DNA of 64,000 nt from Ostreococcus lucimarinus (Eukaryota): the NCBI GenBank assembly GCA_000092065.1, contig CP000593.1. The stretch is one strand, 5' to 3'. Below are positions 16,001 through 16,414 of the stretch, piece after piece. The stretch's first letter is position 1. Every line of letters starts with the position of its first letter. The position numbers and the translations under genes are program-made. A model generated the notes under the pieces. That model did not search any database and was not told the DNA's origin. It saw only the letters and a program-made list of their open reading frames with translations.

Positions 16001-16414
16001 GTCGCCAGCAACACCTCCCGATCCCCATCCTTCAGCGCGTCCAACCCGTGCACGCGCGTCTCCAGCTCCTCCCTCGTGACTCCCTCCGCGCGATAACACT
16101 CCGGATGCATCCACTTCGATATCCATCCGTAATCGCCGCCGCGATACTTGAGCGGTTCCCCGATTCGCACCGCGTCCTTCGCGATCTTCGTCGCCGATCC
16201 GAACCCCTCGTCGTCAGTCTTTTTTCTCTTCTCTTCGCGTCGATTCGTCGATTCGCCGCACCTTTTCCCCGCACTTCCCGCACTTCCCGCGTCCGCTCTT
16301 CGCGTACTCGCACGCGTGCGTGTACGCCGCGAAAGCCTCCTCGTCGTCGTCGAATATCGGGCGCCAGGTGACGCCCTTACCGTCCCACGACGGGACGATC
16401 GTGAGTTCGACCAT
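13078..16414 (-). CDS. SNF2-family DNA helicase with embedded C3HC4 RING finger (Rad16/Rad5/HLTF-type) and an N-terminal PARP-type zinc finger. Two exons: 16414..16262 and 16185..13078.
   Basis: SNF2_N motifs (LADEMGMGKTIQ, DEAH-like LDEAHKIK), helicase-C motifs ([22 protein letters not shown]) and a RING (CGMCQDEIEEEDAALANCKHIFHRECIMQYASCAPADGKKVTCPVCR). The upstream track ORF 16214..16597 ends ...EYAKSGRGKCGKCGEK, and the main ORF begins (at GTG) IGEPLKYRGGDYGWISKWMHPEC. Joined across a GT..AG intron they give a complete zf-PARP consensus: CGKCGEK|IAKDAVRIGEPLKYRGGDYGWISKWMHPEC. The ATG at 16414 gives MVELTIVPSWDGKGVTW... Confidence 0.85.
16186..16261 (-). other. Spliceosomal intron (76 nt) in the SNF2-RING helicase gene; phase-0 junction between codons K and I.
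   Basis: Minus sense AAG|GTGCGGCGAATCGACG...AAAAAGACTGACGACGAGGGGTTCGGATCGGCGACGAAG|ATC. GT at 16261-16260 and AG at 16187-16186, with a CTGAC branch-point-like motif about 30 nt from the 3' splice site. 76 nt accounts for the +1 frame change between the two track ORFs and restores the zf-PARP domain. Confidence 0.75.

Follow-up and report, generated by a model that had tools for sequence, protein, structure and literature searches.

The minus strand of the 64,000-nucleotide stretch of Ostreococcus lucimarinus CCE9901 DNA analyzed here (the window) carries, between positions 16414 and 13078, a gene for a SNF2-type protein with a PARP-type zinc finger near its N-terminus. The coding sequence runs from an ATG at 16414 to 16262, is interrupted by an intron at 16261..16186, and continues from 16185 to a stop at 13078. 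The first coding exon (16262..16414, minus strand; 153 nt, codons 1-51) specifies an N-terminal β-hairpin region followed by the first half of the zf-PARP domain (…EYAKSGRGKCGKCGEK), including R42, C45 and C48, and ends …CGKCGEK at 16262; the second (13078..16185, minus strand, stop included; codons 52-1086) resumes the frame at IAKDAVRIGEPLKYRGGDYGWISKWMHPEC…. DNA alignments with relatives show that conservation starts at the ATG at 16414, with the sequence upstream of it having diverged. The spliced product of 1086 amino acids is identical, residue for residue, to XP_001421157.1 (ABO99450.1; UniProt A4S6V0), and the existing annotation therefore uses the 16261..16186 intron. The gene model is already known, being present in RefSeq with its 76-nt intron, and the 'missed intron' of a preliminary description of this DNA reflects the six-frame ORF track rather than a gap in the public annotation. 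That description had pointed to two minus-strand ORFs (16214..16597 and 13078..16170, the latter with a GTG start), both of which are present and contain the peptides quoted from them; it was also right that splicing yields a complete protein, but the length of 1081 amino acids it gave should be 1086.

Searches with Pfam profiles reveal, in order, zf-PARP, a SNF2 region with an embedded RING, and Helicase_C, so that every domain anticipated for the spliced protein was recovered. The intron-interrupted zf-PARP domain (16009..16309, minus strand; aa 36-110) scores 53.8 bits in the full protein and 56.7 bits in aa 1-150, the Pfam cut-off for this family (PF00645) being 39.3 bits. A linker places the last zinc ligand of the finger ~95 aa ahead of the Walker A region. 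The SNF2-type ATPase N-lobe region (13969..15888, minus strand; aa ~151-790) is matched by SNF2-rel_dom in 2 stretches with 194.9 bits, and contains the Walker A motif GMGKT (15781..15795, minus strand; aa 182-186) and the DEAH box (14563..14574, minus strand; aa 589-592). This ATPase domain is split by a low-complexity insert of ~240 aa rich in K, E, D, S and A (14629..15351, minus strand; aa ~330-570). The C3HC4 RING finger (13735..13875, minus strand; aa 822-868) exceeds the respective cut-offs with both zf-RING_2 (31.1 bits; cut-off 27.3) and zf-C3HC4 (24.7 bits; cut-off 21), and lies between the SNF2 region and the Helicase_C lobe (13249..13596, minus strand; aa 915-1030; 74.3 bits). A HIRAN domain found no match on the spliced protein in Pfam searches extended to E-values of 1.

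Two further cysteine-rich segments were observed. The first is a C-x2-C-x12-H-x5-C motif (CQWCGKKYLPRSMVTHLKYFC; 15409..15471, minus strand; aa 290-310) in SNF2 lobe 1, which is kept in distant homologs and has no significant Pfam match; PF13913 (zf-C2HC_2) was flagged on the homologs P0050 and P0103. The second is a cysteine cluster, FCSTKGCECK…FCTNCGC (14326..14409, minus strand; aa 644-671), situated between the DEAH box and the RING and likewise devoid of a Pfam match, which we take to resemble the cysteine-rich insert of yeast Rad16.

As to the surroundings of the gene, GC3 declines from 0.85 to 0.54 in the 5' to 3' direction along 13078..16414. In the interval 8000..22000, GC content peaks at 0.75-0.80 in three places (10000-11000, 16800-17800 and 20000-20600) and has a trough of ~0.50 where two convergent genes end; the RAD16 stop (13078) lies only ~85 bp from where a convergent gene for a cNMP-binding kinase ends (12992). 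The upstream neighbor, an ORF of 266 aa on the same strand (16607..17407, minus strand) for which no Pfam match was obtained, ends ~190 nt before the RAD16 ATG. In a metagenomic relative (L001, a 577-kb contig whose RAD16-like protein shows 84% identity to that of the window), a similar-sized gene (278 aa) occupies the position corresponding to this ORF, the neighbors likewise include a cNMP-binding kinase gene, and a gene for a ubiquitin-conjugating enzyme (UQ_con; L001:7819-8385) lies directly downstream of the RAD16-like gene. The N-terminus (MRSANAAFDACDASLRAF…) of the O. tauri homolog OUS46383.1 (P0130) resembles the C-terminus of the window ORF 16607..17407; because this model covers only 76% of the query, it is perhaps a fused or mis-spliced annotation.

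Splicing within the zinc knuckle

The interruption is a spliceosomal intron of 76 nt in phase 0 (16186..16261, minus strand; GTGCGG…GACTGACG…CGAAG, with GT..AG termini), removal of which joins K51 to I52 in frame. Each unspliced half of the finger falls under the Pfam cut-off (16.4 and 19.4 bits, versus 53.8 bits with an E-value of 3e-14 for the spliced form), and hence the zf-PARP domain exists only after the join. Among 95 open-frame GT/GC..AG pairs, 16261..16186 is the best and the sole gapless fit to the intron-less ortholog. The GTGCG donors at 16313, 16283 and 16274 were rejected, as each shifts the frame when used with the same acceptor. The in-frame union of the two halves by this 76-nt GT..AG intron, as originally proposed from the ORFs, is thus borne out by both the Pfam score and the intron-less relative.

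Introns of O. lucimarinus outside chromosome 2 have been described as possessing an unusual and strong consensus, with GTGCGTG at the 5' end and the branch point GACTGACG, and this extended branch motif was found in 66.5% of the EST-confirmed introns of that class (PMC2483917). The present intron is of this non-chromosome-2 type, with a GTGCGTG-like 5' site, a (G)ACTGAC(G) branch point and a 3' AG: its donor, GTGCGGC, agrees with GTGCGTG at 5 of the 7 consensus positions (the first five), and an exact GACTGACG occurs at 16212..16219 (minus strand), which puts the branch A 28 nt upstream of the 3' splice site. Counting both strands, the 64-kb window holds only 3 copies of this 8-mer.

Comparison of 16186..16261 of the window with L001:4001-5044 and L002:275-934 is consistent with these signals. 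In L001 the ORF is uninterrupted and precisely these 76 nt are missing. The metagenome contig L002, with exons that match those of the window, has a 77-nt version of the intron in which indels are confined to the intron; an indel and several substitutions cluster there, with one substitution visible in the flanking exon. Together, the comparative and signal evidence, along with gene prediction, renders the predicted splice at 16261..16186 well supported, and sequence comparison confirms the reading of the locus as one gene with two coding exons and a single canonical intron inside the zinc knuckle of an N-terminal PARP-type finger. The least credible of all the alternatives is that no splicing takes place, so that a short ORF upstream and a Rad16 gene of its own, initiated at an internal codon, each hold a meaningless half-finger: fragments of such a kind do arise from ORF callers on metagenome contigs (P0003, P0121 and P0242), but the joined sequence is encoded continuously in intron-less relatives, the joined domain rises above the Pfam cut-off and aligns without gaps to PARP1 Zn1, the segment bears canonical, species-specific splice signals, and exon 2 opens with I52, a residue invariant in the family.

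The intron is variable among close relatives. Within the O. lucimarinus-like cluster at 90% its length is polymorphic, with 76 nt in the window and 77 nt in L002, and in other members it is ~10-17 nt longer, one of these appearing as a 31-aa read-through in frame. O. tauri lacks the intron, as do several further Ostreococcus-like clades; most Ostreococcus clades are without an intron at the zf-PARP site. The intron is lineage-specific, and could be a recent gain or the remnant of repeated loss. In Micromonas-like relatives (P0131, P0132, P0135, P0133-P0147) a putative intron was observed in the same zinc knuckle ~11 nt further upstream (CRK|C), its position being derived solely from read-through and exon-2-start ORFs; the offset could represent sliding or an independent gain. 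A repeated 'introner'-type element was considered and rejected, as blastn of the intron against the window matches only itself. Elsewhere in the window a probable second canonical intron was noticed on the plus strand (48318..~48489): the donor of this candidate is exactly GTGCGTG, a GACTGACG branch motif precedes an AG, and a (GAGACGA)n-like tandem repeat lies inside it.

Rad16 affinity and spread of the finger

The closest named relatives of the protein are those annotated as RAD16 or rhp16, which score 620-720 bits as against 212 bits for Kluyveromyces lactis Rad5, the best match in the PDB; no solved Rad16 structure was present in the PDB copy searched, and orthology to yeast Rad16 is judged here by names and scores alone. 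The RING is inserted between SNF2-rel_dom, which ends at aa 790, and Helicase_C (RING, aa 822-868; Helicase_C, aa 915-1030), and the absence of HIRAN has been used as a criterion for the Rad16 subfamily (PMC9786623). The initial assessment of the protein as Rad16-like is in line with these results.

A search with the full-length protein revealed zf-PARP ahead of SNF2 in ~110 of the 120 best homologs. In green algae the combination of PF00645, SNF2, RING and Helicase_C is seen in O. tauri, Micromonas commoda and Chloropicon primus. Stramenopiles with the zf-PARP architecture include pelagophytes, Nannochloropsis and oomycetes (annotated as 'nucleotide excision repair protein RAD16'), and alveolates are represented by Plasmodium ('DNA repair protein rhp16'), Cryptosporidium, Eimeria, Perkinsus and dinoflagellates. 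It also occurs in kinetoplastids. The preliminary description had asked whether zf-PARP+SNF2+RING proteins occur in other algae or protists, and they were found in green algae, stramenopiles, alveolates and kinetoplastids; its view of the architecture as unusual, on the other hand, has to be abandoned, as zf-PARP linked to Rad16 is the usual arrangement outside land plants, with annotated examples in many genomes. Two entries in the literature record the combination in passing: a domain table lists zf-PARP with SNF2 for Trypanosoma brucei Q387H5 and D0A5K9 (PMC5976635, supplement), and a zf-PARP combination is listed for Toxoplasma SNF2 ATPases (PMC12215852, Fig. 1 legend). The open-access literature searched yielded such domain tables only, with no functional or biochemical study of a zf-PARP Rad16, and papers on Tetrahymena and Arabidopsis Rad16 make no mention of a PARP finger.

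When eight representatives were rescanned, an N-terminal zf-PARP scored above the cut-off in Micromonas, Chloropicon, Leishmania, Plasmopara and Nannochloropsis, scored under it in Plasmodium (26.1 bits) and in a Batrachochytrium entry (35.8 bits), and was absent from the land-plant RAD16 representative. A motif scan of 121 sequences (the 120 best matches and the window protein) placed a CCHC finger ahead of the Walker A region in 87; the remainder mostly have variant spacing or are fragments starting inside the finger, and among the 121 the finger is clearly missing only in land-plant-like and Pavlova-like sequences. The distance from the last zinc ligand to the Walker A region that follows is 90-127 aa in most lineages. 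Together these domain annotations indicate that the zf-PARP architecture is the common form of Rad16 across most of the sampled eukaryotic lineages. The sole finger-bearing match of fungal provenance, from Batrachochytrium salamandrivorans (P0172, BASA81_002712), was rejected as evidence for fungi because it clusters with pelagophytes in a neighbor-joining tree and its 35.8 bits lie under the cut-off; contamination of the assembly is a possible explanation.

In the same tree, which is crude, midpoint-rooted and built with no outgroups, plant and Pavlova sequences that lack the finger are nested among those that carry it, a pattern that is suggestive only, but compatible with secondary loss of the finger. 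A broader proposal, which we put forward tentatively and would not favor over its negation, is that the PARP-type finger is an ancestral and functionally required part of Rad16 in global-genome nucleotide excision repair, where it would serve as an anchor at nicks or gaps against which the translocase generates torsion on incised or damaged DNA, and that secondary losses took place in land plants and Pavlova-like haptophytes, as well as, apparently, in the model yeasts. If this were true, the textbook Rad16 would be a derived form. What is known of Rad16 comes almost wholly from budding yeast. Most of the sampled protist and algal relatives, including those of Plasmodium, Toxoplasma-type parasites and trypanosomatids, carry a PARP-like finger, the study of which could shed light on the way in which Rad7-Rad16 locates or grips DNA. 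For the window itself this carries little weight, as the gene model and domain content are already public.

Fold of the finger and its possible role in repair

Examination of the spliced finger reveals zinc ligands with the pattern C45-x2-C48-x29-H78-x2-C81, which fits the CCHC spacing of zf-PARP (C-x2-C-x28-30-H-x2-C) and bears out the complete consensus expected from the join. In a phmmer search of the PDB, aa 32-110 align with Zn1 and Zn2 of human PARP1 (E 1.4e-16), the alignment with Zn1 being gapless across the exon junction. Binding of these PARP1 fingers to DNA breaks relies on two elements, an arginine (R18/R122) termed the 'phosphate backbone grip' and a hydrophobic 'base stacking loop' (PMC8150716). 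R42 of the window protein aligns with R18/R122, and Y70 and I73 correspond in the alignment to Leu and Ile in the PQLGMID segment of Zn2, which are base-stacking positions. Across 25 distant homologs C45, C48, I52, H78 and C81 are invariant and R58 is near-invariant (at least 90% conserved); R42 varies in the family, with A, Q or S in some homologs. In an AlphaFold model covering aa 1-315, pLDDT averages 81, with values mostly of 84-95 in the finger and of ~66 in the loop block 61-70 that constitutes the stacking loop. Foldseek comparison of the modeled finger with DNA-bound PARP1 Zn1/Zn2 (3ODA, 3ODC and 3OD8) gave target-normalized TM-scores of 0.72-0.80 and rmsd values of 2.6-3.5 Å, and the remainder of the model matches SNF2 lobe 1. 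The finger is accordingly modeled with a PARP1 Zn1/Zn2-like fold.

Yeast Rad16 combines DNA translocase and RING E3 activities (PMC3116912). In light of the similarity scores and the modeled fold, we consider it probable that the window gene is the Rad16/rhp16 ortholog of O. lucimarinus CCE9901 and that its finger binds DNA discontinuities, anchoring or activating the translocase and ubiquitin ligase in global-genome nucleotide excision repair. Specifically, the single finger would bind a nick, gap or end, as do Zn1 and Zn2 of PARP1 and the finger of DNA ligase III, with contact made through a conserved arginine backbone grip (R42 and R58) and a hydrophobic base-stacking loop (Y70 and I73); it would thereby hold or switch on Rad16 at damaged or incised DNA, and the bound sites might be incision intermediates. 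The yeast Rad7-Rad16 complex reportedly has post-incision and torsion-generating roles. From the conserved DNA-contact residues and the predicted fold, direct recruitment to nicks or breaks can be regarded as a reasonable inference, and we infer that tethering or activation at nicks, gaps or ends would be the most economical reading of the finger. Given that kinetoplastid orthologs carry the finger and that the PARP of T. brucei has no zinc fingers, it must act independently of poly(ADP-ribosyl)ation in at least some lineages.

The same residues and geometry could also be accommodated by a less specific function, which we regard as unlikely, if the most serious of the competing explanations. 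Here the finger would be no nick sensor; it would anchor the protein to DNA in general or to particular structures (distorted, UV-damaged or non-B DNA, for example), or else would gate the ATPase by autoinhibition. As an anchor it would give the translocase a fixed DNA contact for torsion, in the manner of Abf1, which supplies such a contact for yeast Rad7-Rad16. The presence of a single finger in place of the Zn1-Zn2 pair, the similar finger-to-ATPase distance in most lineages, the dominance of the backbone-grip arginine in DNA binding by the PARP1 fingers with a modest contribution of the stacking loop (PMC8150716), and the behavior of yeast Rad7-Rad16 as a translocase without nucleosome sliding (PMC3116912) are all consistent with it, but the hydrophobic stacking positions Y70 and I73 are retained and the characterized Zn1/Zn2 fingers of PARP1 recognize breaks. 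The finger of DNA ligase III, too, recognizes breaks.

A question of a different kind is whether the pathway is global-genome repair at all. The protein belongs to the Rad5/16-like group, its best PDB match is K. lactis Rad5, Zn2 of PARP1 engages the 3' side of single-strand breaks (PMC8150716), and HIRAN, the mark of Rad5, is absent, all of which would suit a Rad5/HLTF-like enzyme in which the finger replaces HIRAN as a reader of 3' ends or gaps and which functions in post-replication gap or fork processing, or in single-strand-break repair. Against this, similarity to RAD16/rhp16-annotated proteins is much higher, and Arabidopsis RAD16 homologs, which are without the finger, are reported to be involved in UV tolerance (PMC10454142); we hold a Rad5/HLTF-like role to be improbable, more so than a general anchor. 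That the finger is merely a decaying relic without function is very improbable indeed: its loss in land plants and Pavlova-like haptophytes and the sub-threshold score in Plasmodium (26.1 bits) are what such decay might look like, but even very distant lineages share invariant zinc ligands and a near-invariant R58, the exons are strongly conserved on both sides of a fast-evolving intron, and this conservation of the finger makes a relic unlikely.

The preferred reading, a Rad16 anchored at DNA discontinuities, can be set against several known systems. The fold, the CCHC ligands, the backbone-grip arginine and the hydrophobic stacking loop are common to the window finger and Zn1/Zn2 of human PARP1, and in the same features it can be likened to the zinc finger of DNA ligase III. 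Unlike PARP1, the window protein has a single finger and no PARP catalytic, WGR or BRCT domains, and, unlike the fingers of both PARP1 and DNA ligase III, its finger is attached to a translocase and an E3. Rad5 and HLTF, too, are SNF2-RING enzymes of the Rad5/16-like group that carry a module for reading DNA structure at the N-terminus, but theirs is HIRAN, which was not found in the window protein, and K. lactis Rad5 shows far lower similarity (212 bits). The Rad16 proteins of S. cerevisiae and Arabidopsis, in the latter case RAD16, which provide the translocase and E3 of the Rad7-Rad16 system of global-genome nucleotide excision repair, share the SNF2 ATPase with a C3HC4 RING between its lobes; their published domain figure displays SNF2, RING and helicase-C only, and a PARP-type finger does not appear in the published descriptions of budding yeast Rad16 that were covered. 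The land-plant RAD16 representative matches the window protein with 627 bits and 43% identity, and has a low-complexity N-terminus in place of zf-PARP. XP_001421157.1, labeled a 'predicted protein' of O. lucimarinus CCE9901, has the same exons and the same intron, and that record is an uncharacterized prediction. The closest counterparts are the finger-bearing orthologs, which share the order zf-PARP, SNF2, RING and Helicase_C and a similar distance from finger to Walker A, and some of which add SAP, HMG-box or PHD modules upstream; they include proteins of Micromonas commoda ('SNF2 super family'), Chloropicon primus, Plasmopara halstedii ('NER protein RAD16'), Leishmania ('DNA repair protein'), Plasmodium ('rhp16') and T. 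brucei (Q387H5 and D0A5K9).
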